Assembly: GCA_019421015.1 (NCBI GenBank)
Contig: JAHZGC010000024.1
Location: 862 to 64,861, forward strand
DNA length: 64,000 bases
Reading direction: 5' to 3'
Source: Coriobacteriaceae bacterium
GTDB lineage: Bacteria; Actinomycetota; Coriobacteriia; Coriobacteriales; UMGS124
Shown: one piece after another, positions 1-33,195 of the stretch
Layout: each line of letters starts with the position of its first letter
Position numbering within the stretch: position 1 is the stretch's first letter
Position numbers and translations under genes: made by a program
The notes under the pieces: model-generated
The model's database searches: none
Told to the model about the DNA's origin: nothing
What the model saw: only the letters and a program-made list of their open reading frames with translations

Positions 1-3000
1 GACGAGGAACGCCTTGTACTCGGGAACCTGGGTGTTGGGGTCGCCGACGTTGGGGGTCAGGTCGTTGACCATGCTCTCGGAGTTGGCGTACACGCCGGCC
101 CAGCCGAAGTGGTGGGTCATGCCGATGAGGTGGGTCATCTGGCCGTTGATCATCATCGGCTTAAAGCGGTTGGTGATCACCGAGTCGACGACGGCCGAGC
201 CGCGGTTGTTCCACACGCGCACCTTGTCGCCCGGCTTGATGCCCTTCTCCTCGGCGAGCTCGGGCGAGAGCTCGATGAACTGGGTGGGCATGGACTCGAT
301 GAGCGCGGGGCACATGCGGGTCTGGCCGCCGGTCTGCCAGTGCTCGACGACCGAGTAGGTGGTCGCGGCGATGGGGTACTCCTCGCGGCTGCCGCGCTTG
401 GTCGAGGGGTACTCGGCGAAGCGGATGCAGGGCGACTGCACGTAGCCGTCGGCACCGTGGAGCGGGTTGACGTCGGTGGGCGACTCGAACGGCTCGTAGT
501 GCTCGGGCAGGGGGCCATCTTCCATCGCGTAGGACTCGAGACGGGCGTTCTGCTCCCAAAGCATGAAGAACGCGTTGTCGTTGGGCTCGACGGGCTTGCC
601 GTCGCGGGCGGCCACGAAGTCGGGCTGGTCCCAGGTGACCCACTCGTCGCCGGTCCACTCGACCAGGCACTTGTCGGGGTTCCAGGGCTGGCCCTGCGGG
701 TCGGCCGAAGCGCGGTTATACAGGATGCGGCGGTTCGACGGCCAGGCAAAGGCCCACTCGGAGTAGAGGCCCAGGCCCGTGGGGTCGTCGAGGCTGCGGC
801 GGCAGATGTTTTGGGCCTCGGGGTTCAGCGGGTCGTCGTTGTTGGCCCAGAAGCCGGTGTAGATCCACATGGCGCAGGCCGTGGAGCCGTCGGCCTGGAG
901 CTCGCCGTAGCCGGCGCACAGGTCGGCCTTGGGGTCGGCCTCGGTGGTGTCGCACTCGGTACCCTCGATGCGGTAGCCGTTGAGGGCCCAGGCAACCGGG
1001 CGCGGGTCGATCTTGCCGTCGACGTAGTAATCCCACTTGGTGTTGAGCACGGGGTCGGGGTTGGCGCCGCCCTCCTCCTCGTAGAGGCGGCAGATCTCCT
1101 TCCAGAGCAGGTCGCAGATCTCGTAGTCGGGCTTGGCCTCCTCCCACGGCTCGACGGCCTGGTGGCGGTACTGGATCCAGCGGCCCGAGTTGAGGATCAG
1201 GCCCGGCTTCTCATAGATCAGCGCGCACGGCAGGTAGTACACCGTGGTGTCGATCTGGGAGGGGTCCATGTCGGGAGCCTTCCAGAAGGTGGCCGACTCA
1301 GTCGCCACCTGGTCGACCACGACGAGCCAGTCGAGATTCGACATGGCGCGGCGCACGTTGCCGGCGTTGGGGGCCGAGTTGCAGGGGTTCATGCCCCAGT
1401 TGAAGTAGCCCTTGACGACGCCCTCGCTCATCAGCTCGAACGAGGGGATGATGGTCTCGGTCAGGCCGCCCTGGTGCACCTTGGGCCACCAGTCGTAGCC
1501 GTAGTCGTTCTCCTCGGTGGCGTTCTCGCCCCACCACTCCTTGAGCGAGGAGATGAGGAACTTGGGCTTGTTGGTGTAGTAGCCGGCCGAGTAGGTCTGG
1601 CTCTCGAGCCAGTCGCGCAGGCTCTTGCGGTCGGTGGTGTTGGGCCACTTGAGGTAGGCCGGGTGCTCGTTCACCATCATACCCATGTCGGTGGCGCCCT
1701 GGACGTTGGGCTCGCCGCGCAGGGCGTTCACGCCGCCGCCAGGCATGCCGATGTTGCCGAGGAGCAGCTGCACGAGGCACATGGCGCGGGTGTTCTGGGC
1801 GCCGTAGGTGTGCTGGGTCTGACCCAGGGCGTAGAGGATGGTGCCCGATTTGCCGGGCTCGCCGGTGGAGGCGTAAGTGGAGTAGACGAGCTCCAGGGTC
1901 TCCTTGTCCATGCCGCAGATGCTGCACACGGTGTCGAGGTCGTAGCGCGCGTAGTGCTTCTTGAACTGCTGCCACACGCACATGGGGTCCTCGAGCGTCA
2001 TGTCGCGCTTGGGGGTCTCCACGGTGGGGGTGGTGAACTTGGGCACGCCGGGCTGCTCGACCCAGGAGTAGGCGCCGTTTTTAGAGGTGTCCCACTCAGA
2101 CTCGCTCTCGATCTGATAGTGCCAGCTGTGGTTGCTGTAGGTGGCGTTGTCGGCCTCGAAGCCCGAGAACAGGCCCGTCTCCGGGTCGAACTCGTAGTCG
2201 GGGTCGAGCAGGTAGGAGGCGTTGGTGTAGTTCAGCACGTACTCGTGCTGCCACAGGTCGTGCTCGATGATGTAGTTGTACAGGCCGCCGTAGAAGGCGA
2301 TGTCGGTGCCCGAACGAATGGGGCAGTAGATGTCGGCCATCTCGGCCGTGCGCGTGTAGCGCGGATCGACGACGATCCACTTGGCGCCGCGGTCGTGAGC
2401 CTTGTTGAGCCACTTGGAGCTCACGGGGTGGTTCTCGACGCTGTTCGACCCGCAGTGGAGAATAACGTCGGCGTTCTGCATATCACACCAGTGGCTCGTC
2501 ATCGAGCCACGGCCAAACGATGCCGCCAGACCGGCGACAGTGGGGCTGTGTCAAACTCGGGCTTGGTTGTCGATGGCCACGACACCAAGCGAACGCATCA
2601 TCTTGAGGATCAGGTACTCTTCCTCGGAGTTCTGCTGAGAGCCGCCGAGGCTGGCGATGCCCTCGCAGCGGTTGACGGTCAGGCCGTCCTCCTCGGTCTC
2701 GACAAAGGTCTCGTCGCGGGTGTCCTTCACCTTGCGGGCGATCTCGGCGATGGCCTCGTCCCAGGTGATGTCCTCCCACTCGCTCTTGCCGGGGCGGCGC
2801 ACCATGGGCTTCGACACGCGGTCGGCGTTCTTCACGATCTCGCGGGTCTTGGGGTCGACGACGTTGCGAAGCTGGAACATCGTGGCACCCTTGGGACACA
2901 GACCGCCCTCGTTGATGGGGTGGTCGGGGTCGCCCTCGAGGTTGATGAGCTCGCCGTCGCGCGAGGAGCACAGCGAGCCGCATCCGCCAGCGCAGTAGCA

Positions 3001-3153
3001 GCAGATGTTCGTGCTCTCCTCGGTGTCGACGAGCTTCCACTCTGCATTGGCCGAGGCGGCCAGCGCGGGGGTCTTTGAGGTCAGGCTGTACGCCATGGTG
3101 GCGCCCAGCGCTGCGCCTCCGGCCTTAAAAAGGCCTCTGCGCGAAAGCTCCAT
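1..3153 (-). CDS. fdhA: Formate dehydrogenase catalytic (alpha) subunit, Mo/W-bis-PGD family, selenocysteine-containing, Tat-exported; 3' end runs off the window
   Basis: ORF 2551..3153(-) starts MELSRRGLFKAGGAALGATMA (twin-arginine signal). It has a CCYCAGGCGSLC Fe-S motif and stops at TGA 2551-2553 after ...IDNQARV. Hand translation continues in the same frame as U-HSPTVAGLAASFGRGSMTSHW, which is the ARV-U-HxPTV active-site motif of FdnG/FdhF-type enzymes. SD GGGAAAGGAAG lies before ATG 3153. The downstream part is missing from the ORF track because it has no stop inside the window. Confidence 0.9.
2522..2553 (-). promoter_or_regulatory. UGA(Sec) codon plus candidate bacterial SECIS hairpin of the formate dehydrogenase mRNA
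   Basis: On the minus strand the sequence is UGA CAC AGC CCC ACU GUCGCC-GGUCU-GGCGGC. This gives a 6-bp stem with a GGUCU apical loop starting 13 nt after the UGA. The loop resembles the GGUC loop of the E. coli fdhF SECIS (recalled knowledge). Confidence 0.65.
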
Positions 3154-3940
3154 TACACACTTCCTTTCCCTCTCTAAAGCCTATCGGTGGTCGGTTCCAC
3201 CGCTGATATGTGGGTAGCGGAACCGCCCACATCTACCCATTGTATAAATCCAGCCTCAAAACGCGTCCATGCGAGGGCGTGTCAACCACATGGGCGGTTC
3301 TGACCGGACGGCCTGTGGGACGGGCGGCGTGTATGGAGCCGTGTGCGGTTGCCCTGGGCCGTGGCCGCAGTGTACCCCCTCTGGTTGGTCATAACAATAG
3401 GGAATAACGGAGTTTATATGCATAAAAAACTATATCGAACCTTGGAATAACGGAAAATAAATTACAGCCTCTATCTCGAAATACTTTTCATATGGGCCAA
3501 AGTATCTAAAAGGCTATTTTATGCAATCAAAAAATATTCTTATGCATATATAGACTCCAACCTCCTCATCTCCACCCTCGTGGGGAGGCATGTCGCGAAA
3601 GGTCCGGAGCAGCGAGGGCGGGGGAGGCGTGGGTTGACGGGGCGTCGGGAGAGAACGTGCCCAAAACCGCAGCGTGTCTTATCCGGGGCGGATTTCAATA
3701 CCCGAAACGGGGTTATGAACTCCAGGGGGTCGGAATCTTCTTGACGTTATGTCAAAGGGCAAAGATAACCGGAAGCAAGGTATGGTGGCTTTGTGAAGGC
3801 GTGGCTATCGTGGCTGCCGGTAGCGCGCATCGCCGCAAACCTCCTGGTAGGAAGCGGTGTGCGCTCATGGGGTCGCACCTGCGCCTGTGGTTTTGCCATA
3901 GGGGGTGCGAGCAAGTTAAGGGAGTCATGAGAGGAGAGAG

Positions 3941-6900
3941 ATGAGGGAAGCGAAGATGGACCGTCGCCAGTTTGTGCAGGCGATGGGTACCGTCGGCGCG
4001 CTCTCGGTCGCTGGCGCCGGTTTGGGCGCCCTTCCGACCGTGGGCCTTGCCGACGACGCTGAGTTCCCCAAGGCCCAGACCGGCAAGCCGGTCGAGGCCA
4101 CCGTCGACCCTGCCACGGGCGACATCAAGGTCAACGAGGACGTCATCGTCCGCAACTCCGGTTGCGTGGGCTGCTACCAGTCCTGCGGCAACCGCATCAA
4201 GATCGACCGCGAGACCGGTCGCATGCTGGGCGTGGGCGGCAACCCCTACCACCCCTCCTGCACCAACCCGCCGCTGCCCTTCGAGGCGCCCCTCACCGAC
4301 GAGATCCTGTCGATGAGCTACGCCAGCGTCGAGGGCAACTCCAACCAGGTCCGCTCCACCGTCTGCGGCCGCGGCCAGGGCACGCTGGACTCAGCCCTGC
4401 ACGCCAACCGCATCACCGTGCCGCTCAAGCGCGCCGGTAAGCGCGGCGAGGGCAAGTGGAAGCCGATCAGCTGGGAGCAGCTCATCACCGAGGTCACCGA
4501 GGGCGGCAAGCTCTTCGAGGAGATCGGCGAGGACTACGAGATCGAGGGCTTCAAGTCCGTGCACAGCACCGACCCCATCGATCCCGAACAGCCCAACCTG
4601 GGCCCCAAGTCCAACCAGATCCTGATCTGGAACACCCGCGCCGACGGGCGCCGCGAGCTCAACTCGCGCTTTGCCAAGACCTTCGGCACGGTCAACACCT
4701 ACAGCCACAACAGCTCTTGAGGCGCTGCCGGCGGAGTGAGTTCACTCTACACTGAAGGCACCACCTTTGGCTGCGACACCAACAACGCCGAGTACCTGCT
4801 CTGGAGCGGCGGCTTCCCCGGAGGCAACGCCGGCATGCAGGTCACGGGCAAGTACATGTCCGAACGTCTTCTTAACGGCTCCCTCAAGGTCGACGTGCTC
4901 GACCCCACCCTCGCTCAGGGCCTCGTGACCCCCACGATGCCCGGCATCAACTGGGTGCCGATCAAGCCTGCGACCAACGGCGCCCTCTACGCCGCCGTGG
5001 CCCAGTACATGATCAACAACGGCACCGCCAACGAGGAGTTCCTCTCCTTCCCGAGCCAGGCCGCCGCCGAGGCCGCCGGCTGGGGCGCCTACACCAACGC
5101 CACGTTCCTGGTCATCGAGGACGAGGCCCATCCCAACTACCGCAAGCTCATGCGCGCCGAGGACGCCGGCCTTGAGACCCCCGAGCCCGAAGAGGGCAAG
5201 GCCGCTCCCACCTACTACGCCGTCATCGACGCCGAGACCGGCGAGCCCGTGCTCAACACCGACTGCGCCAAGGCGGACCTGCGCTTCGAGGGCGAGGTCA
5301 ACGGCGTGAAGGTGCGCACCGGCTTTTTGCACCTCGTGGACTCGGTGAACGCCTACACCATGGACGAGTACGCCGAGATCACCGGCGTGCCCGTGTCCGA
5401 GCTCGAGCGCATCGCCACCGAGTTCGGCTCCCACGGCTACAAGGTGAGCGTCAACGCCTCGTCCGGCTCCACCGCCGGTACCAACGGCTTCGACACCCCC
5501 AACGGCCGCGAGGTCCTGAAGGCCCTGGTGGGCTCCAACCAGATGCAGGGCGGCTCGTTCGGCGGCCCCGGCGCCCCCGTGATGGAGGGCAAGGGTGCGC
5601 GCTACGACATCGCCACCGCCTCCATCGAGGGCATGCCCGACGTCTCCGGCAAGAACGCCGCCCAGCTGGCCCGCTGCGGCCGCGCCTGGGAGAAGACCGA
5701 CGAGTACGCCAACCGCGTGGCCGCCGGCGAGGAGAACCCCCAGCCGCTGCTGCCCTGGTACCCCATGGCCTCGCAGTCCGACAGCCAGGCCCTCATGGGT
5801 GTGGTGAACCAGTACCCCTACCAGTGCAAGATCATGATGACCTGGATGTGCAACGTGATCCAGGCCACGCCGGGCTCCATGCGCGACGAGGTCATCGAGC
5901 GCCTCTGCGACCCGAGCGTGCTGCCGCTGCACATCGTGTGCGACATCGTGATGGGCGAGATGGCCGCCTACGCCGACTACTTCGTGCCCGACGTGACGCA
6001 GTACGAGAGCTTTGGCCTGCCCACCAGCTCCCTCTACGGCGCCTCCGTGCGCTGGGAGGCAACCACGCCGCAGACCCTGGAGCTCGCCGACGGCCGCCAC
6101 GTGTGCTGGGAGACCCTGCTCATCGACGTGGCCAAGGCCTGCGAGCTGCCCGGTTGGGGCGAGAACTCCTTCTTCACCGACGTCGACGGCAACACCTGGC
6201 CCTTCAACTCGTCGCAGGACTACTACCTCAAGGCCATCGCGAACCTGGCCTACGCCAACGACGAGCCCTGTGACGACATCTCGGCCGAAGAGGCCCACAT
6301 GCAGGGCCTTGACGAGCTGCCCGCCTCCTTCACCGACGCCGTGAGCGAGCAGGAGTGGCCCAAGGTGCAGCGCGTCCTCTCGCGCGGCGGCCGTTTCTGG
6401 ACCGCCGAGCAGAAGACCAACCGCGCCGAGGACGGCCGCAGCACGAACATGAAGCCCTGCTGCACCTATATCTACAACGAGAAGCGCGCGCTTTCGAACA
6501 CCGGCCTCGCCAACGAGTACTACAGCGGCGGCCTGACCTACAACCCGCAGCGCTTCGCCGACATGTCGCTCGTGAGCGACCACTACTCGCTCGAGGAGTA
6601 CCCGTTCACGGCCTCCGAGTCCAAGCCGGTCTTCCGCTCGATCACCCGTCTGGCCGACAGCCCCATCATGCGCGGCCTGTGCGCCACGAACCACGTGCGC
6701 ATCAACGACGAGGACGCTGCAGAGCTCGGCATCGCCGACGGAGACCTCGTGCGCGCCGTCACCCCGGCCGGCGACGTCACCGAGGGCATCGCCATGGTGC
6801 GCGGCGGCCAGGTGAAGGGTGCCTTCTCGGTGTGCTTCGGTTACGAGCACATCAACTACGGCGCCCAGCCGCTCGTGGTCGACGGCGTGGAGACTCCGGG

Positions 6901-7045
6901 CGACCCGGCCATCGCCGCGGGCACGCGCCTCAAGACCATGCTCGACCCCACGGTCACCGACGGCGAGACGCTCATGATCTGGGCCGACAACACCGCCGCG
7001 AGCCCCGGCCGCTGCGGCGGCATCTATAAGATCGAGAAGGCATAG
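3941..7045 (+). CDS. Tat-exported molybdopterin (Mo/W-bis-PGD) oxidoreductase catalytic subunit with in-frame UGA (predicted selenocysteine) at 4718-4720; TtrA/PsrA/ArrA-like size and architecture, not a formate dehydrogenase
   Basis: Track ORFs 3941..4720 and 4736..7045 are in the same frame, separated only by TGA 4718-4720 and five sense codons (junction TVNTYSHNSS-U-GAAGGVSSLYTEG). The N-terminus MDRRQFVQAMGTVGALSVAGAGLGALP is a Tat signal. The FS0 motif is CVGCYQSCG...STVCGRG. A molybdopterin-binding C-terminal beta-barrel-like region is present (RINDEDAAELGIADGDLVRAVTPAGDV). The alternative start ATG 3956 (MDRRQF) has better SD spacing than 3941. Confidence 0.8.
4718..4748 (+). promoter_or_regulatory. 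UGA(Sec) codon plus small downstream hairpin (candidate SECIS) in the second molybdoenzyme
   Basis: The sequence is TGA ggcgctgccggcg GAGTG-AGTT-CACTC. The stem is 4734-4738/4743-4747 with a 4-nt loop containing GU, about 14 nt after the UGA. This hairpin is weaker than the FDH one. Confidence 0.4.
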
Positions 7046-7059
7046 GGAGGTAATCGACC

Positions 7060-7695
7060 ATGAGTGAAAAGCGTCTTGGAATGTTGATCGACCTCTCCCT
7101 GTGCATCGGCTGCAACGCCTGCGCGGTGGCCTGCAAGCTCGAGAACGACGTGCCTGCAAACGACGTCTTCAACGTGTGGGTGGAGAGCTGGGACGGCGAC
7201 CGCGGCGACGGCTACGTGTGCCGCACCAACGTCCCCAAGCAGTGCAACCAGTGCACCAATCCCAGCTGCGTCCCGGTGTGCCCCACCGGCGCCACCTACA
7301 TTGCCGAGGACGGCACCGTTCAGATCAACGCCGACGAGTGCATCGGGTGCCAGGCCTGTATGGCGGCCTGCCCCTACGGCGCCCGCTGGCTCGACGACGC
7401 CACCACCACGGTGCGCAAGTGCACCTTCTGCGAGCACCGTGTGGAGAACGGCCTGGTCCCCGCCTGCGTGGCCACCTGCGTGACCAAGTCGCGCATCTTC
7501 GGCGACCTGAACGACCCCGAAAGCGACATCTCGAAGCGCATCGCCGAGGCCGGCGACGCGGTGACGGTGCTGCTTCCCGAGGAGGGCCTCGAGCCCAACG
7601 TGTACTACATTGGCCTCACCGAGGCGCTGGACATGCCCAAGCGCTCCGGCGTCAACAAGGGCGGCAACGTCCTGGAGACCTACGAGGGCAAGTAA
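7060..7695 (+). CDS. Four-cluster [4Fe-4S] electron-transfer subunit (DmsB/PsrB/TtrB-like) of the Sec-molybdoenzyme
   Basis: Fe-S motifs are CIGCNACAVAC, CNQCTNPSCVPVCP, CIGCQACMAACP and CTFCEHR...CVATC. SD GGGAGG is 9 nt before ATG 7060, which lies 14 nt after the catalytic subunit stop. There is no signal peptide, so export would be by Tat hitch-hiking. Confidence 0.9.
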   Translation: MSEKRLGMLIDLSLCIGCNACAVACKLENDVPANDVFNVWVESWDGDRGDGYVCRTNVPKQCNQCTNPSCVPVCPTGATYIAEDGTVQINADECIGCQACMAACPYGARWLDDATTTVRKCTFCEHRVENGLVPACVATCVTKSRIFGDLNDPESDISKRIAEAGDAVTVLLPEEGLEPNVYYIGLTEALDMPKRSGVNKGGNVLETYEGK

Positions 7696-7724
7696 GGCCG
7701 GCGCGGTAGGCTAGCCGGTCGAGG

Positions 7725-7772
7725 AGCCCCCGCTCCCGCGCGCAGCTCAGCGCCGCGGGGCGGGGGCTTTTT
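7725..7772 (+). terminator. Intrinsic terminator after the Mo-enzyme operon
   Basis: AGCCCCCGC (7725-7733) pairs with GCGGGGGCT (7760-7768), with inner CCCGCG/CGCGGG pairing. It is followed by TTTTGC. Confidence 0.6.
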
Positions 7773-7880
7773 GCGGGCGCGGCCCCGCTCGCCCCGCGGC
7801 TCGGCGGCATGCGCGGCCGCACGGGGGCGCTGGGGTACAATGGCCAGACGTTACGGATCTGAGCGAAAGAAGGATGGGCC

Positions 7881-9431
7881 ATGGGCCAAGCGGACAATCC
7901 CGAAGGACCTTCTACGGCGGACGCCCAGGCGGTCGCGGCCGCCCTGCGGGGCCTGCCCCGCGTCGACGACATGCTTGCCGACCCGGCGGTGGCGCAGGCC
8001 CGGCAGGGTGTGCCCCGCGAAGTGGCACTTGCGGCGGTACGCGGGCTGCTCGACGAGGAGCGCGCCTGCATCCGCGCCGGCCGGCCGGGCCGGTCCCGCG
8101 AGGGCCTTTTGGCCGAGTGCGCGGCCCGCGTGGCCCTGGCCGCCCTGCCGCACCTGCGCTGCGTGGTGAACGCCACCGGTACGGTCATCCACACCAACCT
8201 GGGCCGTGCGCCGCTCTCGGCCAAGGTCGCCGCCCACGTGGCCGATGTGGCGAGCCACTACTCCACCCTCGAGTTCGACGTGGAGGAGGGGGTGCGCGGC
8301 TCGCGCCACGACCATGTGCGCGAGCTCATCTGCGCCATCACGGGGGCCGAGGACGCGGCGGTGGTGAACAACAACGCCGCCGCCGTGATGATGGTCCTCG
8401 CCGAGTTCGCCCGGGGCCGCGAGGTCGTGGTGAGCCGCGGCGAGCTCATCGAGATCGGCGGGTCGTTCCGCATCCCCGACATCATGGCCATGTCGGGGGC
8501 GCGCATGGTGGAGGTGGGCACCACCAACAAGACCCACCTGGTCGACTTTGAGCGGGCCATCACGCCCGAGACGGCCCTCGTCCTCAAGGTGCACCCCTCC
8601 AACTACCGCGTCGTGGGCTTCCACGAGGAGGTGGCCCCCGACGAGCTGGCGCGGCTGGCCCACGCCCACGGCGTCATGGTCTACGAGGACCAGGGCTCCG
8701 GCTCCTTCGTGGACCTGGCCGCCGCCGGTGTCGGCTCCGGCGAGCACACGGCGGCCTGGTCGCTCGCCCAGGGGGTCGACCTCGTGAGCTTCTCGGGCGA
8801 CAAGCTGCTCGGCGCGGCCCAGGCGGGCATCATCGTGGGCTCCTCGGAGCTGGTGCGCCGCGTGAAGAAGAACCCCCTCATGCGCGCCATGCGCCCCGAC
8901 AAGATGACCCTGGCCGCCGTGGAGGCGGTGCTGCGCTCCTACCTCGACGGCGACGCCGCCTGGCGCGACGTGCCCGTGCTCGCCATGCTCGGCGCCACCC
9001 CCCGCCAGCTCCACGAGCGGGCGTCGGCGCTGTTCGGGCGTATCGTCGCCGCACTTGGGGAGCGAGGGGTGGCCTACTCCTTCGACGGCCCGCAGGACGC
9101 GTCGGCCCAGGCGGGGGAGACGCCCTGCGGGCTGCAGGCGGGTCCGGTGCGCCTGCGGGTGACCCCCCTGGAGTCCTGCGTGGGCGGCGGGGCCCTTCCC
9201 ACCGAGGAGCTGCCGGGCTACGGGCTGCGCCTTGAGGTCGACGGCGTCTCGCCTAACCGCCTGCGCGCACGGCTCCTCTCGGTGCGCCCCCGGGCCGTGG
9301 TGGCCCGCGTGGGCGACGGCGCGCTGCTGTGCGACGTGCGCACCCTGGTGGACGAGCGCGACGAGGCCGACGTGGTCGAGGCCCTGGCAAACGTGGTTGA
9401 GCAGGCTGTGGCAGAAGGGAGCACACGATGA
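7881..9431 (+). CDS. selA: L-seryl-tRNA(Sec) selenium transferase
   Basis: Motifs are [16 protein letters not shown] and the PLP-lysine motif [17 protein letters not shown]. The stop overlaps the selB start (ATGA). Confidence 0.9.
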
Positions 9432-11404
9432 GCGCGGACGAGAAGGACCCGGAGGTTGCGGTGATTGTGGGGACCGCGGGCCATGTGGACCACGGCAAAA
9501 GCTCGCTCGTCATGGCCCTCACGGGCACCGACCCCGACCGCCTGCCGCAAGAGAAGGCCCGCGGCATCACCATCGACCTGGGCTTTGCCGAGCTGACGCT
9601 TCCCAGCGGGCGGCAGGTGGGCCTCGTCGACGTCCCCGGCCACGAGCACTACGTGCGCGCCATGGTGGCCGGTGCCGCCGGGGTGGACGTGGCGCTGCTC
9701 GTGGTTGCGGCAGACGACGGCGTGATGCCCCAAACCCGCGAGCACCTTCGCATCCTCGAGGTCATGGGTGCCACCCAGATGGTCGTTGCCCTCACCAAGG
9801 CCGACCTCGTGGAGCCCGACTGGCTCGAGCTCGTGCAGATGGACCTCGAGGAGTTCCTCGAGGGGACGCGTTTTGCCGGGGCGCCCGTGGTACCGGTCTC
9901 GAGCCGTACGGGCGAGGGCCTGCCCCGCTTGTTGGAGGCCTTGGACGCGGCGGCCGAGAAGTTCGCGTGCTCCGAGGCCGCGGCCGCGCGGCTGGCGCGG
10001 CCGGCGCGTCTGGCGGTAGACCGCGCGTTCAACGTGGCCGGCGTGGGCGCCGTGGTCACGGGCACGCTGCGCTCGGGCACGCTCGCCCCCGGCGACGCGG
10101 TGGACGTGCTGCCGGCCGGGACGCGCGCCAAGGTGCGCAACGTGCAGGTGCACGGCCGCGACGTCGCGCGCGCCTGCGCGGGGCAGCGCACCGCCCTCAA
10201 CCTCACGGGCGTGGGGCTCGAGGAGGTGCCCCGCGGCGCCACCGTGTGTGCGCCGGGGTCGCTCGCCGCGCACGACCGCTTCGACGGCATACTGCGCTGG
10301 TTCGGACGCGACCGGGACGACCCGGCGCCACTGGTCTCGGGGGAGCGCGTGCACGTGTGCGTGGGCACCTCACAGGCCCTGGGCCGCGTGCTGCTCTTCG
10401 ACGGGGCCCCCGAGCTGGCCTGCGGCCAGCAGGCGCTGGTGCAGGTGCGCCTGGAGGAGCCGCTGGTGCTCGCCGCCCAGGATCGCTTTGTGGTGATGGC
10501 CTTCTCGCCCGTGGAGCTGGTGGGGGGTGGCACCGTGCTGTGGGCCAACCCGCCGCGCCGCACGACGCCTGCCGAGGCCGACCGCGCGCTGCTGGCCGCC
10601 CTGGGGGCGTGCGACGAACGGGGGGCCGTGCTGGCCCTGGCGACGCGGTCGGCCTTGCCGTTCACGGCACCCGAGGTCGCCGCCTCACTCGACCTGGGGG
10701 CCGACCGGGCGGCCGGGCTGCTCGCCGAGCTGGCGGCCGCCGGCGAGCTCGAGGCGCTGGGGACGCCCGGGGCGGCCCAGGCGTTCTCGACGCCGGCGCA
10801 GCTCGATGCGCTCTGCCAGAAGATGGTGGGGGAGCTCAAGGGGGACCACGGCCTGGCCCAGGCGGGCACCGGCGTGCCCGTGCTCGCCCTGCGCGACCGC
10901 GTGGCCCCGCGCATGGACGCCGCGGCCTTCGGGGCCCTGGTGGCGCGTGCCGAGGCGCAGGGGTTGGTGGGACGCTTTGGGGCCGGCGTGGTGGCCGGCG
11001 ACGACCTGGAGCGCCTGCGCCGCGAGGCCGGCGAGCTTACCGACCGCGTGCAGGCGTCGCTCGACGCCCACGGGGTGGCCGTGCCGTTCGTGGAGGACCT
11101 GGTGGGCGAGCTGGGGCTCGACGAGGCCGTGGTGCGCCGCGGCCTCACCATGCTTTGCGACGAGGGGCGCGCCGTGGCCGTGGACCGCTCCTACGTCATG
11201 GGTAAGGCGGCCCACGACGCCGCTTGCGAGACCGTGGCCGCCACCATCCGCGCCGCCGGCGGCCAAGTCTCGGCCGGCGAGCTGCGCGAGGCGCTGGGCC
11301 TCTCGCGCAAGTACGCGATGCCGTTCTTGGAGCACCTCGACAAGATAGGGTTCACCGTGCGCTCGGCCGACGGGCAAGGCGCCCGCAGCCTGGCCAAGCC
11401 GTAA
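9428..11404 (+). CDS. selB: Selenocysteine-specific translation elongation factor
   Basis: GTPase motifs are [22 protein letters not shown] and LTKADL. The protein is 658 aa, with the long C-terminal extension typical of bacterial SelB. It is translationally coupled to selA. Confidence 0.9.
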
Positions 11405-11548
11405 AGGCTGGAGGCCGTGCGGGGTGCGGGCGACCCTGGGTGGCATGGGGCGAGCGGGCGGCCCGGGCGGGGCTGGACGACGCGTGCGGCGGGCGAGGCG
11501 GGATCGGGTTGGGTGACACGGGATGCGGGCGGGGTGGAGGCTGCCTTG

Positions 11549-11730
11549 TTAATCAATATAGAAAGATAAATTTTGAAAACGATGACTTTTGCATGACGTA
11601 TTGCAGGCTTTGATTCCACCGTTATGAAGAGGGACAAAGAAATACCTGGATTGGTGTGAATTGTTGTAATGTATATATAATTGGGGCAATCACAGTCATG
11701 CATTTGTCTGAGTTTTTACGATTGATGTTT
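11549..11730 (+). repeat. AT-rich TIR element, copy A (family of 3 full copies)
   Basis: It shares three conserved blocks with copies B and C. The blocks are AAATYTYGAAAAYGATGRCTTWTGCATG, AAAGAAAYRCCTGGAWYGGTGTGAATKGTTGYAA and TCATGCATTTGYC..AG.TTTTAY.ATTGAT. Blocks 1 and 3 are inverted repeats of each other. AT content is far above the flanking DNA. Confidence 0.85.
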
Positions 11731-11738
11731 TCTGCCCT

Positions 11739-11806
11739 CGTGTCTCGACTTCCCTGCCCCCGGCGTCTCGACTTCCCTGCCCCGGCGTCTCGACTTCTCC
11801 GTCCCC
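11739..11806 (+). repeat. Tandem direct repeat, 3 x 22-23 nt (consensus GGCGTCTCGACTTCCCTGCCCC)
   Basis: The units are 11739-11760, 11761-11783 and 11784-11806, read directly from the sequence. The third unit is slightly diverged (TTCTCCGTCCCC). Confidence 0.9.
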
Positions 11807-11868
11807 GCATGTCAGCCTCTTGACCCCGCGGCCCGGTTTGCGCATTTGCTGTCGATTGCGGGCCGCAG

Positions 11869-11896
11869 GCGACCATGCGGCGAGGGCGGGTATACT
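11869..11896 (+). promoter_or_regulatory. Candidate selC promoter (-35-like GCGACC, 16-nt spacer, -10 TATACT)
   Basis: TATACT at 11891-11896 lies 12 nt upstream of the mature tRNA 5' end. The -35 element is weak. Confidence 0.3.
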
Positions 11897-11908
11897 GGGC
11901 TCTAACCC

Positions 11909-12005
11909 GGAGGCGGATGGGTCCTGGTGGGCCCCGCGGTCTTCAAAACCGTTGCGAGGCGTGCAGAGCGTCTTGGATGTGTTCGATTCGCATACGCCTC
12001 CGCCA
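11909..12005 (+). tRNA. selC: tRNA-Sec (anticodon UCA)
   Basis: It was folded by hand from 97 nt. The acceptor is GGAGGCG(G)/(A)CGCCTCC plus G-CCA. The D-stem has 6 bp (GGGTCC/GGGCCC) with a 4-nt loop TGGT. The anticodon loop is CTTCAAA, with TCA at 11943-11945. There is a long variable arm (AGGCG-TGCAGAG-CGTCT). The T-arm is ATGTG-TTCGATT-CGCAT. Confidence 0.93.
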
Positions 12006-12019
12006 GGAAGTTTGCGATG

Positions 12020-12066
12020 AGCCGCCGTTCCCCGCGTTGCGTGGGGGCGGCGGCTTTCGTTTTGGG
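12020..12066 (+). terminator. Intrinsic terminator after selC
   Basis: GCCGCCG (12021-12027) pairs with CGGCGGC (12048-12054), with inner CCCC/GGGG pairing. It is followed by TTTCGTTTTGGG. Confidence 0.6.
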
Positions 12067-12110
12067 AGACGGGCGGTTCCCGCATATGTCTCCAGAGAGG
12101 GGAGGGCCCT

Positions 12111-14213
12111 ATGGAGCGCGGTATTGTCACCGTGTGCGGCGGATGCGATTCCGAGTGCGCCTTCGAGGCTTACGTCGACTCCGAGGGCTTCGTGCGCGCC
12201 TCGCTGCCGGTGTCGGGCCATCCCTGCTGCGCCGAGCGCCTCTGCGGCCGCGGCAAGCGTCGGCTCGCCCTGCCCCACCTGCAGCGCGACCGCATCGAGC
12301 ACCCCTTGCGCCGCACCGCGTCGGGCGCTTTCGAGCCCATTTCGTGGGAGACGGCCTACGCCGAGATCGCCGAGCGCGTTTGCACCCTCGCCGACGCTCA
12401 CGGGCCTTCTTCGTTGGCCTGCACGCTGGGCATCACGAGCCATGCCGCCTTCTATGTGGAGCGCCTCATGGCCGCGCTGGGCTCGCCCAACGTCTACGGG
12501 GCCAACGGCGCCTGCGAGGTGAGCCGCTGCACCGGTTGGAACCATACTTTGGGCTATAGCCCCCAGTCCGACCTCGCCCACACCGACTATATCGTCTACC
12601 TGGGCCGCTCACCGCTCGACTCCGCCAGTGTGAACGAGGGGGAGTTAGTGGAGCGGGCCCTGGCCCGTGGCGCCACTGTGGTCTGCGTCGACCCGCGCCG
12701 CAACTCCACGGTCGACGTGGCCAGCCGCTGGCTCAAGATTCGCCCCGGGCGCGACCTGGCCCTTCTGCTCGGCCTGGCCCACGTGCTCATAGAGGAGGGC
12801 CTCTACGACCGGGACTTTGTGGAGCGGCACACGACGGGGTTCGCGGAGTTCGCCCAGGCCATGGCTCCCTACACGGCCGCCTGGGCCGCCCGGGAGTGCG
12901 GTGTTGCCGAGGCCGACGTGCTCGAGGTGGCCCGCGGCCTGGGGCGTGCCCGGCCCCGCGCGGTGGTGGACGCGGGCTTTCACGGCGGCCTGGGCGTGGC
13001 CTATGTGAACGGAGCCCAGACCTCGCGCGTGCTCGCCCTGGTGAACGCCCTGCTGGGCAACTTTGGCCAGGAGGGGGGCAACCTCAACCCCCGGGGCGCC
13101 TGCGAGCTGGGGCGGCTTGACCCGGTGCGCTTCCCTGCGCCGCCGCCGGTCCTTCTCCCCAAGGTGGGCTCGGAGCGCTACCCGCTGGTCGACCCCGAGC
13201 AGGGGCTGTGCACCACCATCGGCGAGTCCATAGCCGCCGGTCAGATCAGGGGGCTTCTTGCCTACGCCTCGAACCCTGCCATGGGCTACGGCAACGGGCA
13301 CGACTGGGCGCGCCTGTTGGGCGGCCTCGACCTGCTCGTGGCCGTTGACATCCGCATGAGCGAGACGGCCCGGCTGGCCCACTACGTGCTGCCCGACGTG
13401 ACCTTTCTCGAGAGCGACCGCGGCGTGGGCCTGCGCGACGGCGTGCTCTACTACCGCAACCCCGTGCTGCGGCCGCTCTACCCCGACGCACGGCCGGCAT
13501 CGCGCATCGTGCGGGAGCTGGCCGAGGCGCTGGGGCTGGGGCGGTACTTCTCGTTCACGCCCGACGACCTGGCCCGGGCCCAGGTGGCGCCCTTTGGGGT
13601 CGACCTGGAGGAGCTGCGCCGCGTGGGCTGGGCGCCGGCGAACGTGGAGGTGCTCGCGCGGGTGGGGGAGCCTGTGATCCTCACGCCCTCGGGCAAGGTG
13701 GAGTTCGCGAGCGACCTGTGGGAGCGCTCCGGTCTGGGCCGCGTGCCGTTCTGGCAGCCGCCGCTCGTGGACCCGCAACCGGGGGAGTTCAGGCTCATCA
13801 ACGGCAACAGCCCCTTCGAGTCGCACACCTCCACGGCCATGCTGGCCCCGCGTCCCGGCGATCCGGCCCACGAGAGCATGGCGAGCGTGTGGCTCCATGC
13901 CGACCGCGCCCGTGAGCTGGGCGTCTGCGACGGCGACATGGTGGAGGTCTACTCCGACCTCGGGTGCGACCGCGCCATAGCCCGTGTGACCCACGACCTG
14001 CATCCCGAGGCCCTCTACACCTCGGCGAGCCCGGGGGGCCGCTCGGGCAAGAACGCCGGTGCGCGCGAGGCCCCCCAGGGGGCGCTCGGGGTGGGGCCGC
14101 TCGACCACACGCCGCTGCGCTTCGACCCGCTCACCGGCAGCGCGCTGACCCAAGAGAACGCCGTGCGCGTGCGCCGGGTGGGGCCGCAGGGGGGAGACGC
14201 CCCTGCGCAGTAG
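12111..14213 (+). CDS. Stand-alone cytoplasmic molybdopterin (bis-PGD) oxidoreductase, PsrA/PhsA/acetylene-hydratase-like branch, no signal peptide, no partner subunits
   Basis: The N-terminal FS0 motif is VCGGCDSEC...GHPCCAERLCGRG. Family-typical segments are VCVDPRRNSTVDVASRWLKIRPGRDLALLLGLAHVLIEEGLYDRDFV and a C-terminal barrel (HADRARELGVCDGDMVEVYSD). SD GGGGAGGG precedes ATG 12111. Confidence 0.85.
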   Translation: MERGIVTVCGGCDSECAFEAYVDSEGFVRASLPVSGHPCCAERLCGRGKRRLALPHLQRDRIEHPLRRTASGAFEPISWETAYAEIAERVCTLADAHGPSSLACTLGITSHAAFYVERLMAALGSPNVYGANGACEVSRCTGWNHTLGYSPQSDLAHTDYIVYLGRSPLDSASVNEGELVERALARGATVVCVDPRRNSTVDVASRWLKIRPGRDLALLLGLAHVLIEEGLYDRDFVERHTTGFAEFAQAMAPYTAAWAARECGVAEADVLEVARGLGRARPRAVVDAGFHGGLGVAYVNGAQTSRVLALVNALLGNFGQEGGNLNPRGACELGRLDPVRFPAPPPVLLPKVGSERYPLVDPEQGLCTTIGESIAAGQIRGLLAYASNPAMGYGNGHDWARLLGGLDLLVAVDIRMSETARLAHYVLPDVTFLESDRGVGLRDGVLYYRNPVLRPLYPDARPASRIVRELAEALGLGRYFSFTPDDLARAQVAPFGVDLEELRRVGWAPANVEVLARVGEPVILTPSGKVEFASDLWERSGLGRVPFWQPPLVDPQPGEFRLINGNSPFESHTSTAMLAPRPGDPAHESMASVWLHADRARELGVCDGDMVEVYSDLGCDRAIARVTHDLHPEALYTSASPGGRSGKNAGAREAPQGALGVGPLDHTPLRFDPLTGSALTQENAVRVRRVGPQGGDAPAQ

Positions 14214-14459
14214 CGAGGCCGGCCGGCTCAAGGCGGAGAAGACCCCCGGTCCGACCTGCCTCCCGAGTGTGGTTCTTGGTGCAGCAGTCTATGGGCTGCC
14301 CTAGGGCCTTGGGAATCTCATGAATTCCCTATAATAGCGCTCGGTATCGTCTCATAGGCCCCCTCATTTGCAAAGCTATCCTGTATACTGCCTCCTTGAA
14401 TCGGGGAGCGGCGCGTCCGTTGCGCCGCTGGGACCCCGTCGTCCGACCTAAGGAGGTCG

Positions 14460-15782
14460 TTGGCTTTTATGCCAGTTCCGCTAAGTCTGCTGCTCGTTGT
14501 GTTCTTCTTGCTCATGAACGCGTTCTTTGTGGTGGCCGAGTTCTCGCTCGTGCGCGTGCGCCGCAGCCAGATCGACATGCTGGCCGCCGAGGGCAAGCCC
14601 GGCGCTAAGAACGCGAGCCTCATCGCCCACGACGTGAACGCCTACCTCTCGGCGTGTCAGCTGGGCATCACCTTGGCCTCCCTGGCCCTGGGCTGGCTGG
14701 GCGAGCCGGCCGTCTCGGCGCTGTTCCACCCCCTGTTCGACCTGCTGGGCCTCTCGCCTTCGGTGGCCTCGGCCGTCTCGGTGGCCATCGGCTTCGTGAT
14801 CATCACGGCCCTCCACATCGTGGTGGGCGAGCTCATCCCCAAGTCCCTTGCGATCTTCTCCACCGAGAAGTACGCCCTGTTCTCGGCTACCCCGCTGGTG
14901 TGGTTCTACAGGCTCACCTATCCCATCATGTGGCTGTTCAACTCCATCACCAACGGCGTGATGCGCATGCTCGGCCACGACCCGGCCGACGAGCACCAGG
15001 TCTACACCGAAGACGAGCTGCGCCTGCTCATCGACGAGAGCACCGAGAGCGGCCTCATCGACTCCGAGCAAAACGAGTTCGTGGACAACATCTTTGACAT
15101 CTCCGACCGCGACGTGTCGGCCGTCATGACCCCGCGCCCCGACATGGTGTGCCTCATGCTCGACGACACGCTGGAGGAGAACCTCGCCGTGGTGGACGAG
15201 CACAAGTTCACGCGTTACCCCGTGTGCCGCGAGGACAAAGACGACATCGTGGGCTTCGTCCACATCAAGGACATCTACGACCTGCCCGACGACGCCACCA
15301 TGGCCGACGTGCGCATCCGCCCCATCGTGGCGGTGCCCGAGGGCATGACCGTGGCCAAGCTGCTGCGCACCCTGCGCGAGGGCCGCACCAAGATCGCCCT
15401 CGCGGTGGACGAGCACGGCGGCACCTCGGGCCTGGTGACCATGGGCGACGTCATCGCCGAGATCATCGGCGACTTCGACGACGAGTACCAGCACGGACCG
15501 AGCGACGAGCTGGTGGAGCTGGGCCACGGCCATTGCATGGCGCCGGGCTCCTACGACATCGACGACTTTGCCGAGCTCTTCGGCTTCGATGGCGACGGCT
15601 TTCCGGAGTACGACACCGTGGGCGGCCTGGTGCTCGACCTCATGGGGCACATCCCGGCGGTGGGCGACGAGGCGGTCTACGAGGAGGGCGGCAAGCGCGT
15701 GCGCATGGCCGTGCGCGCGATGGACGGCAACCGCGTGGCCCAGGTGGAGCTCTGGTCCCTGGAGGAGCTGCCCGCGGAGTAG
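14460..15782 (+). CDS. CNNM/CorC-HlyC family transporter (DUF21 membrane domain, CBS pair, CorC_HlyC C-terminal domain)
   Basis: The N-terminus LLLVVFFLLMNAFFVVAEFSLVRVRRSQIDML is typical of DUF21. A CBS region is present (VMTPRPDMVCL...FTRYPVC...IVGFVHIKD). The track start is TTG 14460, 3 nt after AGGAGG. ATG 14469 is an alternative start. Confidence 0.85.
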   Translation: MAFMPVPLSLLLVVFFLLMNAFFVVAEFSLVRVRRSQIDMLAAEGKPGAKNASLIAHDVNAYLSACQLGITLASLALGWLGEPAVSALFHPLFDLLGLSPSVASAVSVAIGFVIITALHIVVGELIPKSLAIFSTEKYALFSATPLVWFYRLTYPIMWLFNSITNGVMRMLGHDPADEHQVYTEDELRLLIDESTESGLIDSEQNEFVDNIFDISDRDVSAVMTPRPDMVCLMLDDTLEENLAVVDEHKFTRYPVCREDKDDIVGFVHIKDIYDLPDDATMADVRIRPIVAVPEGMTVAKLLRTLREGRTKIALAVDEHGGTSGLVTMGDVIAEIIGDFDDEYQHGPSDELVELGHGHCMAPGSYDIDDFAELFGFDGDGFPEYDTVGGLVLDLMGHIPAVGDEAVYEEGGKRVRMAVRAMDGNRVAQVELWSLEELPAE

Positions 15783-16886: not shown

Positions 16887-16943
16887 TCAGCGCCCCGCCC
16901 CGGCCTCGACCAGGTCGATGAGCTCCTGCTGGCTGTGCACGCC
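16887..16943 (-). pseudogene. Fossil 3' end (last ~18 codons) of a LuxR-type regulator gene
   Basis: The minus-strand translation is GVHSQQELIDLVEAGAGR-stop. This matches the C-terminal tails of the intact LuxR paralogs in this window (e.g. LDVHSHQELIDVVEGRE-stop at 38697). No HTH or membrane domain precedes it. Confidence 0.6.
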
Positions 16944-18464
16944 GACGACGAGTGCTCCGAGGTCGTGGACGTCGACGTGCTCGTGGTGGGTGCCGGCTGC
17001 TCGGGCCTGCCCGCTGCCGTGACCACCGCCGAGGAAGGTGCCAAGGTCATGCTCGTGGACCGCATGGAGCAGGGCTTCGGCATCCGCTGCAGCGCCCTGG
17101 GCGCCATCGACTCCTCGATCCAGCAGGAGCTGGGCGTGACCATCGACAAGATGGACATCCTGAACGACATCGCCCGCTACGCCGACGGCCAGTGCGACAT
17201 GCGCATCTGGAAGATGTGGGCCGACGAGTCGGGTGACGCCGTGAGCTGGTACATCGACCACTGCAACCAGAGCGGCGCGGTCTACGTCGAGAACGAGTAC
17301 AACATGCCCGAGGGCACGCGCTACCGCTGCTGGCCCACCGGCCACGCCTCCCTGGGCGTCGAGATGAAGTGGGCCGCCGAGCACGCCATGCTCGACTACT
17401 TCATCAACTACCTCGAGGGCTTCGACGGCTGCGAGCACCGCGGCACCACGAAGCTCGACGAGCTCATCGTGGGGGACGGCAAGGTCGTGGGCGCCTACCT
17501 CGCCACCGGCGAGGACTTTGACGACGTGATCCGCGTGAACGCCGCCAAGGGCGTCGTGGTGGCCACCGGCGGCTACGTGCTCAACGGCGACATGATGCAG
17601 GCCCTGCAGCCCGAGACCTTCAAGAGCCTCGCGAGCTTCTTTACCCAGAGCCAGGTCTACGGCGAGGGCATCAAGGCCTGCATGAACGCGGGGGCCAAGT
17701 TCGAGGAGACCCACACCGCGCTGGTCTTTGACCGCGGCGCCGTGCACGCCGACGTGGAGCTGGGCAACCCCTTCTCGGGCAACGCCGGCCAGAACTGCCT
17801 GCAGTCCCAGCCGTTCCTCAAGGTGAACCAGTACGGCGAGCGCTTCTGCAACGAGTCGAGCCCCTACGACTACGTGTTCCACGCAGCCTCTAAGTTCCCG
17901 AACCGTGCCTGGTACCCCATCTGGGACGCCAACTTCCTCGAGGATGTGGACCGCTTCCACACCGTGGGCTGCTCCACCCAGCTCATCCGCGAGGGCGGCG
18001 ACCACCTCATGGGCAACGAGCCCGAGGCCGTGGTGGGCTCTGCCGAGGCCGCTGTGGAGGAGGGCACCTGCATCAAGGCCGACACCATCGAGGAGCTGGC
18101 CGAGGGCCTGGGGCTGCCCGCCGAGACGCTGGTGGCCACCGTCGAGCGCTACAACGAGCTTGTCGACGCTGGCTACGACGAGGACTTCGGCAAGGACGCC
18201 TTCCGCCTGTCGGCCATCAAGGAGCCCCCGTTCTACGGTCTCAAGCTCGGCGGCACCTGCCTGTGCACCTTCGACGGCATCGAGATCACGCCCGACTGCG
18301 AGGCCCGCGGCGTGAACGGCGAGGTCATCGAGGGCCTCTACGTCATCGGCAACGACGCCGGCAACAAGTACAACAAGACCTACCCCAACTTTGCCGCCGG
18401 CCTGAACGCGGGCCTGTGCGTCACGATGGGCCGCCACGTGGGCAAGCTGCTGGCTGCGAAGTAA
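16935..18464 (+). CDS. FAD-dependent fumarate-reductase/urocanate-reductase-like flavoprotein paralog lacking the Tat signal; probably 5'-truncated (possible pseudogene)
   Basis: The FAD fold is VDVLVVGAGCSGLPAAVTTAEEGAKVMLVDR, with GVVVATGGY and C-terminal NAGLCVTMGRHVGKLLAAK like the paralogs. Its only start is GTG 16935 with no SD. It is about 60-90 aa shorter at the N-terminus than the five Tat-signal paralogs. Its first codons overlap the antisense LuxR remnant. Confidence 0.6.
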   Translation: MHADDECSEVVDVDVLVVGAGCSGLPAAVTTAEEGAKVMLVDRMEQGFGIRCSALGAIDSSIQQELGVTIDKMDILNDIARYADGQCDMRIWKMWADESGDAVSWYIDHCNQSGAVYVENEYNMPEGTRYRCWPTGHASLGVEMKWAAEHAMLDYFINYLEGFDGCEHRGTTKLDELIVGDGKVVGAYLATGEDFDDVIRVNAAKGVVVATGGYVLNGDMMQALQPETFKSLASFFTQSQVYGEGIKACMNAGAKFEETHTALVFDRGAVHADVELGNPFSGNAGQNCLQSQPFLKVNQYGERFCNESSPYDYVFHAASKFPNRAWYPIWDANFLEDVDRFHTVGCSTQLIREGGDHLMGNEPEAVVGSAEAAVEEGTCIKADTIEELAEGLGLPAETLVATVERYNELVDAGYDEDFGKDAFRLSAIKEPPFYGLKLGGTCLCTFDGIEITPDCEARGVNGEVIEGLYVIGNDAGNKYNKTYPNFAAGLNAGLCVTMGRHVGKLLAAK

Positions 18465-24127: not shown

Positions 24128-24265
24128 CCCCCCCCACTTATTAGTAAAACCTAATCGCCTATAAACCATTCGAATTATGTGTAGCCTCCGCGTGGGCGTA
24201 TATTTTTGGGCCATGGGAGGGCCGTAAGGGGCGGCCCTCGGCTTATCGACAAAGGAGACGCGCCC

Positions 24266-32888: not shown

Positions 32889-33195
32889 GCCGGTTCCTCA
32901 CGGGTCGGATGAGCGCTGGGTTTGGCGTACAGGATAACCGGTGGCACCGGTTTTATATGCGACGATGGCAAAAATCACCCGTGCCATGGGAGGGATGGTA
33001 CGTTGCGACGTGCTTGCGTGCGACGGCGGCCCGGAGAGGTGAACGCACAAAACCACCCGCGCCATGGGAGGCGGCTCCGCGGGGGCACCGTATCGTTGAT
33101 GACAGCGCGGCCCATTGCGATGGGCAATAACGAGGCCGCGGTATTGTCCGCTGTGCCCGCAGCACGGGCACGTCGAGATCATGGAGGTTTGTTTT

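Follow-up and report, generated by a model that had tools for sequence, protein, structure and literature searches.

Selenocysteine (Sec) as a ligand of molybdenum or tungsten is known from few members of the dimethyl sulfoxide (DMSO) reductase superfamily. A 2026 inventory of prokaryotic selenoproteins, which comprises 119 families including those annotated in GenBank, lists only FdhA and FmdB/FwdB as Sec enzymes with a Mo/W-bis-pyranopterin guanine dinucleotide (bisPGD) cofactor. Phylogenomic studies of the DMSO reductases from 2020 and 2023 confine Sec to the lineages of FwdB, of FdhG and of the cytoplasmic formate dehydrogenases and give cysteine as the ligand in the lineage of TtrA, SrdA and archaeal arsenate reductase. 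Both sources agree with an earlier note on the DNA treated here, which took the characterised Sec-molybdoenzymes to be essentially formate and formylmethanofuran dehydrogenases. This DNA, called the window in the following, is a stretch of 64,000 nucleotides from contig JAHZGC010000024.1 of a Coriobacteriaceae bacterium. Judged from its sequence, positions 3941..7045 of the window are with high confidence a single gene for a Mo/W-bis-pyranopterin reductase of the DMSO reductase/MopB superfamily and the TtrA lineage, which would be exported by the twin-arginine translocation (Tat) pathway and in which an in-frame UGA would encode Sec at residue 260. No description of a Sec-containing TtrA-like enzyme in Eggerthellaceae was found in the literature searched, which did not extend to subscription journals.

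Among the described systems TtrABC of Salmonella enterica shares with this locus a catalytic subunit of about 1020-1034 amino acids which matches its model from end to end and carries FS0 together with a Tat signal, the gene order A then B, and a four-cluster ferredoxin as subunit B; relatives of the window gene add a TtrC-like NrfD anchor. It differs in that the window enzyme has Sec rather than Cys as the ligand and scores 565 bits against a model cutoff of 1750, that the TtrB of the window lacks 40 N-terminal model positions, and that there is no TtrC in the window. The Sec-containing formate dehydrogenases (FdnG/FdhF) and FwdB/FmdB belong to the same superfamily and likewise have UGA-encoded Sec in the ligand column, followed by a selenocysteine insertion sequence (SECIS) with G23 U24. 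They form another lineage, however, and the window enzyme has GAAG after U, without the UHxP motif, and TtrA, PhsA and DMSO-type reductases as its best models. Of the solved structures, PsrABC of Thermus thermophilus (2vpw) and ArrAB of Shewanella (6cz7) come nearest in sequence and share the AB(C) architecture, but they carry Cys at the ligand position, are about 250 amino acids shorter and show weak similarity (E 2e-12 and 2e-7). A functional parallel, in case the window enzyme reduces S-S substrates, is MccSep of Geobacter, a respiratory Sec-containing multihaem polysulfide reductase in which Sec takes part in the cleavage of chalcogen-chalcogen bonds (PMC13510729), although its fold is unrelated and it uses haem c instead of Mo/W-bisPGD.

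The UGA codon and the hairpin following it

The features on which the assignment rests are:

3941..7045, + strand: ttrA-like catalytic subunit, 1034 codons via the UGA (continuous frame, one-stretch match to the TtrA model, Pfam domains)
4718..4720, + strand: UGA, predicted to encode Sec260 at the Mo/W ligand position (aligned with Cys of ArrA and PsrA and Sec of FdnG; Cys in homologs; TGA in relatives)
4733..4748, + strand: predicted SECIS upper stem-loop with the stem 4733-4738/4743-4748 and the loop A22 G23 U24 U25 (folds, covariation, covariance model)

Translation of the window confirmed that the two open reading frames (ORFs) 3941..4720 and 4736..7045 on the forward strand share one frame and are separated by nothing but TGA 4718-4720, as the earlier note had described. 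From ATG 3941 to TAA 7045 the frame yields a fused product of 1034 amino acids with U at residue 260 in the context TYSHNSS-U-GAAGGVSSLY. It is open from 4721 onward, and GTG 4736 appears as an ORF start merely because the ORF listing needs a start codon.

The placement of the UGA at the metal-ligand column, which the earlier note had expected from the layout of the family, was borne out by alignment. A phmmer search against solved structures aligned U260 with the Cys of ArrA in the segment SHSSVC (6cz7) and with residue 173 of the PsrA chain (2vpw), cysteines which we take to be the molybdenum ligands, a point for which a literature check gave no usable support. The assignment has an independent anchor in the FdnG-type formate dehydrogenase of the window itself, as BLASTP set U260 opposite the Sec of that enzyme; the aligned core has about 22% identity, and a D-x-x-N-A-[DE] segment is in register about 20 residues past U260. 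Position 260 and H256 are invariant in an alignment of 46 full-length family members. Sec260 is thus predicted to stand where related enzymes have a Cys metal ligand and formate dehydrogenases a Sec ligand.

A protein search returned two classes of homologs, full-length proteins of about 1030 amino acids with at most 61% identity and proteins of 714-782 amino acids with 47-99% identity. Each of the 68 full-length homologs aligned at the column of residue 260 is one unbroken chain and has Cys there. A genome scan with one genome per species of GTDB yielded 79 loci. The ligand codon of the 52 closest loci is TGA in 38 and TGC in 12, the other two being short fragments without a reliable match, and it is TGC or TGT in all 25 alignable distant loci. 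All 37 alignable loci without TGA therefore have TGC or TGT, and neither TAA nor TAG occurs at this codon among the alignable loci of the scan, so that orthologs present both Cys and UGA in the column. Carriers of TGA include Gordonibacter pamelaeae, Eggerthella sinensis, Enterorhabdus sp. P55 and Rubneribacter badeniensis, with two loci each Adlercreutzia faecimuris and Gordonibacter sp. P2775, and in addition metagenome-assembled genomes (MAGs) of Ellagibacter and five MAGs of Bacillota, one of them assigned to Sedimentibacter.

The small hairpin which had been noticed after the UGA is present at 4733-4748 and gains strong support from comparison. Counted from the U of UGA as 1 it occupies nucleotides 16-31 and has the loop AGUU. 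In Escherichia coli the SECIS upper stem-loop comprises nucleotides 15-31, 11 nucleotides past the UGA; its loop contains G23 U24, and U17 is bulged (PMC8659212). The position of the window hairpin and its G23 U24 fit this rule. All 30 distinct Sec-type sequences fold a hairpin of 5-8 base pairs beginning 15-17 nucleotides after the U of UGA, and they do so with at least 12 different stem sequences, such as GGAGUG/CACUCU, UCAGCG/CGCUGG, GUCAAC/GUUGAC, AUAGCG/CGCUAU and GGGCUG/CAGCCU. When the ungapped alignment was taken without selection, the six named pairs were formed in 76% of the cells as compared to 60% in shuffles (0/500), with a covariation score of 0.49 as compared to 0.21 in shuffles (0/500) and 0.13-0.23 in slid controls. 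In a subset of sequences chosen by us for matching stem register 99% of the cells were paired, four of the six pairs showed double changes, and the covariation score reached 0.66 versus at most 0.16 in slid controls (0/500 shuffles). G23 U24 is found in 28 of 28 Coriobacteriia sequences, as read from the alignment and not counted separately. The codon holding these two nucleotides specifies Ser, Arg or Gly across the Coriobacteriia, so that their retention points to a constraint at the RNA level.

From 21 of the Sec-type sequences a covariance model was made, which in 1.05 Mb matched only at ligand codons of TtrA-like genes, save one match with E = 0.97. The matches took in paralogs and loci outside the training set, and in the window the ligand-codon site was the sole match; the model also captures coding conservation, which makes this a weak test of specificity. 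RNAalifold gave no consensus structure for the ungapped 45-nucleotide alignment, since the stem register is shifted by one position between subgroups, whose loop lengths differ too. The mean hairpin energy of Sec and Cys forms did not differ significantly (Mann-Whitney p 0.28), since GC-rich Cys forms fold other hairpins. What discriminates the two forms is the position of the hairpin, G23 U24 and covariation rather than energy. That the UGA encodes a Sec metal ligand is considered highly probable.

Enzyme family, partner subunit and electron path

Further features of the predicted enzyme and its partner are:

3941..4051, + strand: Tat signal peptide, residues 1-37, R8R9 in DRRQFV, predicted cut GLA/DD (read from the translation)
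4163..4366, + strand: FS0 [4Fe-4S] ligands C75-x2-C78-x3-C82 ... C142 (VCGRG), Cys invariant in the family alignment
7060..7695, + strand: ttrB-like four-cluster ferredoxin without a signal peptide of its own (Fer4_11 3e-23; TtrB NF011569 209 bits)

The Tat signal and the FS0 motif that had been ascribed to the fused protein are both apparent. R8, R9 and F11 are conserved to at least 90% among the 46 full-length family members and C75, C78, C82 and C142 are invariant; C142, rather than the nearer C106, is the fourth FS0 ligand. The best NCBIfam model is TtrA (NF011567), which matches residues 56-1021 with model positions 56-1012 of 1022 in one stretch spanning the UGA, followed by PhsA with 118 bits. 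Formate dehydrogenase models remain below their cutoffs (TIGR01591 71.6 bits versus 666, TIGR01553 22.6 bits versus 814), and the Pfam domains PF00384 Molybdopterin (29.1 bits, cutoff 24) and PF01568 Molydop_binding (29.2 bits, cutoff 26.8) barely exceed theirs. A 2026 review gives UHxP as the active-site motif of FdhA and FmdB (PMC13188914, Table 1). Here the residue after U is Gly (GAAG), and the motif of the formate dehydrogenases is absent. The claim that the enzyme is no formate dehydrogenase thus holds. As the protein falls short of the TtrA equivalog threshold as well as of the formate dehydrogenase motif, it is filed under the wider TtrA-like lineage, as a Sec-ligated member with the predicted function of a respiratory reductase.

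The partner at 7060..7695, called DmsB-like in the earlier note, is a ferredoxin of the four-cluster type, with TtrB as its best NCBIfam match; its residues 3-191 align with positions 41-229 of the 244 of that model, so that the N-terminal 40 model positions are absent. In every locus long enough to show it, ttrA is paired with ttrB. In most relatives ttrB is directly followed by a gene for a membrane protein of 286-317 amino acids with 8-10 predicted transmembrane (TM) segments, which in the three relatives tested belongs to the NrfD family PF03916 (E 1e-30 to 1e-41), and next to it by a TorD/NarJ-like chaperone gene (PF02613). The earlier observation that no NrfD/PsrC-type gene adjoins the window pair is correct and can be extended to the whole 64 kb, but it describes a local peculiarity in view of these relatives. 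An adjacent anchor is also missing from the second pair of G. pamelaeae, from an ortholog with 75% identity (loci L082/L083) and from L044, the sole Bacillota locus examined in this respect. In G. pamelaeae (locus L003) two Sec-type ttrAB pairs stand in tandem at 3069-7767 and 10001-15277, 2.2 kb apart, with the anchor after the first pair only and the TorD-like chaperone after the second. This layout suggests that accessory subunits are shared between the pairs, and an anchor which is encoded elsewhere and shared would be the most economical reading for the window as well. In the Bacillota locus a gene for 228 amino acids (L044:13098-13784) lies between ttrA and ttrB and no NrfD gene follows; judged by tblastn coordinates, the two genes are separated by a comparable stretch in the other Bacillota loci.

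From this, together with knowledge of the family, a path can be proposed. The hairpin at nucleotides 16-31 would be expected to recruit SelB and Sec-tRNA to the UGA. The folded pair of TtrA-like and TtrB-like proteins would then be exported together, as TtrB lacks its own signal peptide. Menaquinol would donate electrons to an NrfD-type anchor encoded outside the window, from where the four [4Fe-4S] clusters of TtrB together with FS0 would relay them to the Sec-ligated metal, at which an extracytoplasmic acceptor would be reduced. Our best guess for this acceptor is a chalcogen compound, most likely tetrathionate or a related S-S compound, an oxyanion of selenium or sulfur, or a polysulfide-type compound, and the likely electron donor would be formate oxidised by the divergently encoded Sec-FdnG. 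A chalcogen substrate is plausible by analogy with MccSep, where Sec serves in respiratory S-S cleavage.

Several findings weigh against parts of this picture. Taken alone, the window hairpin beats its shuffles modestly (z -2.1; 8/200) and it lacks the bulged U17 of E. coli, so that the support for a SECIS is comparative. The TtrA model score of 565.7 bits lies well under the equivalog cutoff of 1750, and the proteins named TtrA by PGAP in Firmicutes (870-894 bits) as well as proteobacterial relatives (706-731 bits) score higher than the present protein; tetrathionate as the substrate is therefore not established. A tblastn search with five NrfD proteins of relatives and a scan for TM segments detected no NrfD/PsrC-type anchor in the 64 kb of the window, which likewise contains no TorD-like chaperone gene, so that the route of electron entry is a proposed one. 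The link to formate rests on a gene adjacency confined to this lineage.

If Sec260 is right, the enzyme may be a true tetrathionate reductase equivalent to TtrA of Salmonella, an alternative which seems possible but doubtful. For the catalytic subunit no other model comes near TtrA, which matches it from end to end, and for its partner TtrB is the best model; Cys-type paralogs of Gordonibacter and Eggerthella bear the public name tetrathionate reductase subunit A, and tetrathionate is a recognised electron acceptor in the gut (PMC11574389). The score amounts, however, to one third of the equivalog cutoff, and the divergent paralogs within single Eggerthellaceae genomes (the tandem pairs of G. 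pamelaeae, two loci each in P2775 and A. faecimuris) argue for several substrates. Furthermore, the TtrA/SrdA lineage also holds selenate and arsenate reductases (PMC7331816), the window has no TtrC, and no TtrS/TtrR was seen among its annotated neighbours.

Still less likely is a pair without any quinol anchor, which would dock on FdnGHI to form a formate:acceptor oxidoreductase or use another extracytoplasmic carrier, again with Sec in place. Such an arrangement would agree with the lack of NrfD in 64 kb, with the divergent pairing with Sec-fdnG kept in a metagenomic relative of 94% identity (L080), and with the loci mentioned above which also lack an adjoining NrfD gene. It is at odds with the NrfD gene directly after ttrB in most relatives, and the anchor-less pair of G. 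pamelaeae lies so close to an anchored one that a shared anchor is suggested. The preferred reading hence remains a Sec-ligated TtrA-like reductase served by an anchor from elsewhere.

Other readings of the UGA and the evolution of the Sec form

The homologs of 714-782 amino acids span only the C-terminal 70-74% of the query and start at varied start codons just past the UGA column; they are, by this comparison, truncations made by gene callers at the conserved UGA. In the same way an ortholog with 94% identity is split by public gene callers into 259 and 736 amino acids. It is nevertheless very improbable that the UGA is a true stop in a split gene or pseudogene, with a Tat/FS0 fragment of 259 amino acids and a second fragment of 769 amino acids restarted at GTG 4736, as the public annotation implies and as the presence of a GTG 15 nucleotides past the TGA might suggest. 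The codon is always TGA and never TAA or TAG in 38 loci diverged to 40% identity, the called restart positions differ between loci, every unsplit homolog has Cys in the column, and a covarying SECIS lies past the codon. In addition the coding signal remains strong on either side: the G+C content at third codon positions (GC3) is 0.92 ahead of the TGA and 0.95 past it, the window as a whole having 65% GC. Two genuinely separate proteins in the orthologs, an outcome the earlier note had kept in mind, were not encountered. The other outcome it had named, an assembly error for a Cys codon, is ruled out by the TGA in 38 independent genome loci, and the homologs and genome loci equally rule out a lineage-specific pseudogene.

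Decoding of UGA as Trp (genetic code 4) or generic readthrough can be dismissed, although lineages with such a reassignment have been reported in Eggerthellaceae by Parks et al. 2026 (PMC13462651) and few genes of the window, 5 of 32, end in TGA, because these lineages have reduced genomes of 31-40% GC, no tRNA-Sec and selB in 1 of 34 (PMC13462651), whereas the window has 65% GC, five genes ending in TGA and selA, selB and tRNA-Sec, its stop usage equals the average of ordinary Eggerthellaceae (UGA 20.5%; PMC13462651), and the homologs have Cys and never Trp at this residue. The 32 gene ends comprise 14 TAG, 13 TAA and 5 TGA, which is an unusually low share of TGA for 65% GC. Parks et al. 2026 proposed that competition between Sec decoding and release factor 2 (RF2) may drive the avoidance of UGA (PMC13462651). 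If the Sec assignment is true, heavy use of UGA for Sec could contribute to the low use of UGA as a stop, the proposed precursor of its reassignment in Eggerthellaceae, and the present genes bear on the proposed link between Sec use and UGA stop avoidance or reassignment in this family.

In a neighbour-joining (NJ) tree of 75 sequences, calculated without bootstrap, all Sec forms fall into one clade of Coriobacteriia and Bacillota, in which they predominate. The outgroups of this clade, the proteobacterial TtrA-like group among them, have Cys throughout, and within the Sec clade itself Cys forms occur nested at no fewer than five places. One Cys-type paralog with TGC at the ligand codon, from E. 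sinensis (L043:10781-10816, NZ_PPTT01000028.1), has retained a hairpin CAGCG-AGUU-CGCUG at the canonical distance, which the covariance model scores with 32.9 bits; it looks like a recent conversion from Sec to Cys with a fossil SECIS. Since Cys forms are nested in the Sec clade and this fossil hairpin exists, the sequences suggest, provisionally, that the clade started out with Sec and exchanged it for Cys repeatedly. The broader proposal is that ligation of Mo/W by Sec reaches beyond the formate-type enzymes, with a whole TtrA-like clade of gut Eggerthellaceae and some Bacillota that was ancestrally Sec-dependent, often has two or more paralogs per genome and gave rise to Cys forms repeatedly; it is slightly favoured over its negation.

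A Sec-ligated TtrA-like reductase would extend Sec-metal chemistry to a reductase probably acting on chalcogen substrates. In automated surveys, genes of this kind may have gone under FdhA. As public gene calls split them into fragments of 259 and roughly 740-770 amino acids, gut Eggerthellaceae (Gordonibacter, Eggerthella, Adlercreutzia, Ellagibacter, Rubneribacter) have a larger respiratory repertoire and selenoproteome than has been counted. For this group the assignment predicts selenium-dependent respiration, and under the broader proposal the supply of selenium would gate anaerobic respiration in members of the clade. The natural series of Sec and Cys forms, which includes the Cys form with the fossil SECIS, lends itself to probing the contribution of Sec at a Mo/W centre.

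Selenium genes and neighbourhood

The neighbourhood of the ttrAB-like pair contains the following features:

1..3153, - strand: FdnG-type formate dehydrogenase alpha subunit, Sec codon 2551-2553 (translation ARV-U-HSPTV), running off the start of the window
7725..7772, + strand: hairpin like an intrinsic terminator with U5, past ttrB (-47.7 kcal/mol, z -3.4, 0/200 shuffles as good)
7881..9431, + strand: selA, selenocysteine synthase (Pfam SelA 2e-133)
9428..11404, + strand: selB, Sec-specific elongation factor (Pfam GTP_EFTU, Beta-barrel_SelB, SelB-wing_3)
11909..12005, + strand: selC, tRNA-Sec with anticodon UCA (ARAGORN; Rfam RF01852 70 bits)

The fdnG gene is divergent to the ttrA-like gene, its product is Tat-signalled, and its SECIS at about 2521-2539 has the loop GGUCU with G23 U24. 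Within the divergent intergenic region of 760 bp an AT-rich island at about 3390-3560 is probably a shared promoter or regulatory region. A sigma-70 consensus scan of 3100-12200 yielded no promoter-like site, and the terminator after ttrB was overlooked owing to its long loop. This strong hairpin with its U5 probably makes ttrAB a transcription unit separate from selAB.

The genes selA, selB and selC are located about 1 kb downstream; no selD was seen in the window, for which no dedicated search was made. After ttrB the order is selA, selB, tRNA-Sec, a MopB enzyme, a CNNM/CorC protein, a FocA-type formate/nitrite channel and a flavoprotein. That the ttrA-like gene sits beside the sel genes, as the earlier note had stressed, is true of the window and of its 94%-identical relative, where the fdnG/ttrAB/sel arrangement recurs with an FdnH-like and further genes after the formate dehydrogenase gene, but it is no trait of the family, as none of the 52 closest GTDB loci shows this arrangement. 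The neighbourhood of selenium and formate genes is accordingly lineage-specific.

The MopB enzyme at 12111-14213 on the forward strand has 700 amino acids, no signal, a CxxCxxxC FS0 motif and Cys in the ligand region. The models that fit it best, PhsA with 284 bits and the formate dehydrogenase alpha subunit with 230 bits, stay far under cutoff, and the enzyme is also found after selB in the 94%-identical relative. A scan for in-frame TGA codons with coding flanks of high GC3 delivered two sites, TGA 4718 and 10685 on the reverse strand, the latter read as a shadow frame of selB; the scan overlooked the known TGA of fdnG and is therefore not exhaustive for selenoprotein genes. The same-frame ORF junctions at 56688, 30326 and 45793 were considered as extra selenoproteins and turned out to be ordinary TAG or TAA gene ends.

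No GerE/LuxR-type regulator adjoins ttrAB in the window; the Sec-type ortholog with 75% identity (L082:3891-8899 and 13818-15365) is flanked by three such regulators and by FAD_binding_2 flavoproteins. The 64 kb of the window contain at least six fumarate-reductase-like FAD_binding_2 flavoproteins, at 16935-18464, 24206-25966, 33115-34917, 35045-36853 (- strand), 47275-49023 and 53144-54850 (- strand), interspersed with several multi-TM proteins of 430-620 amino acids.

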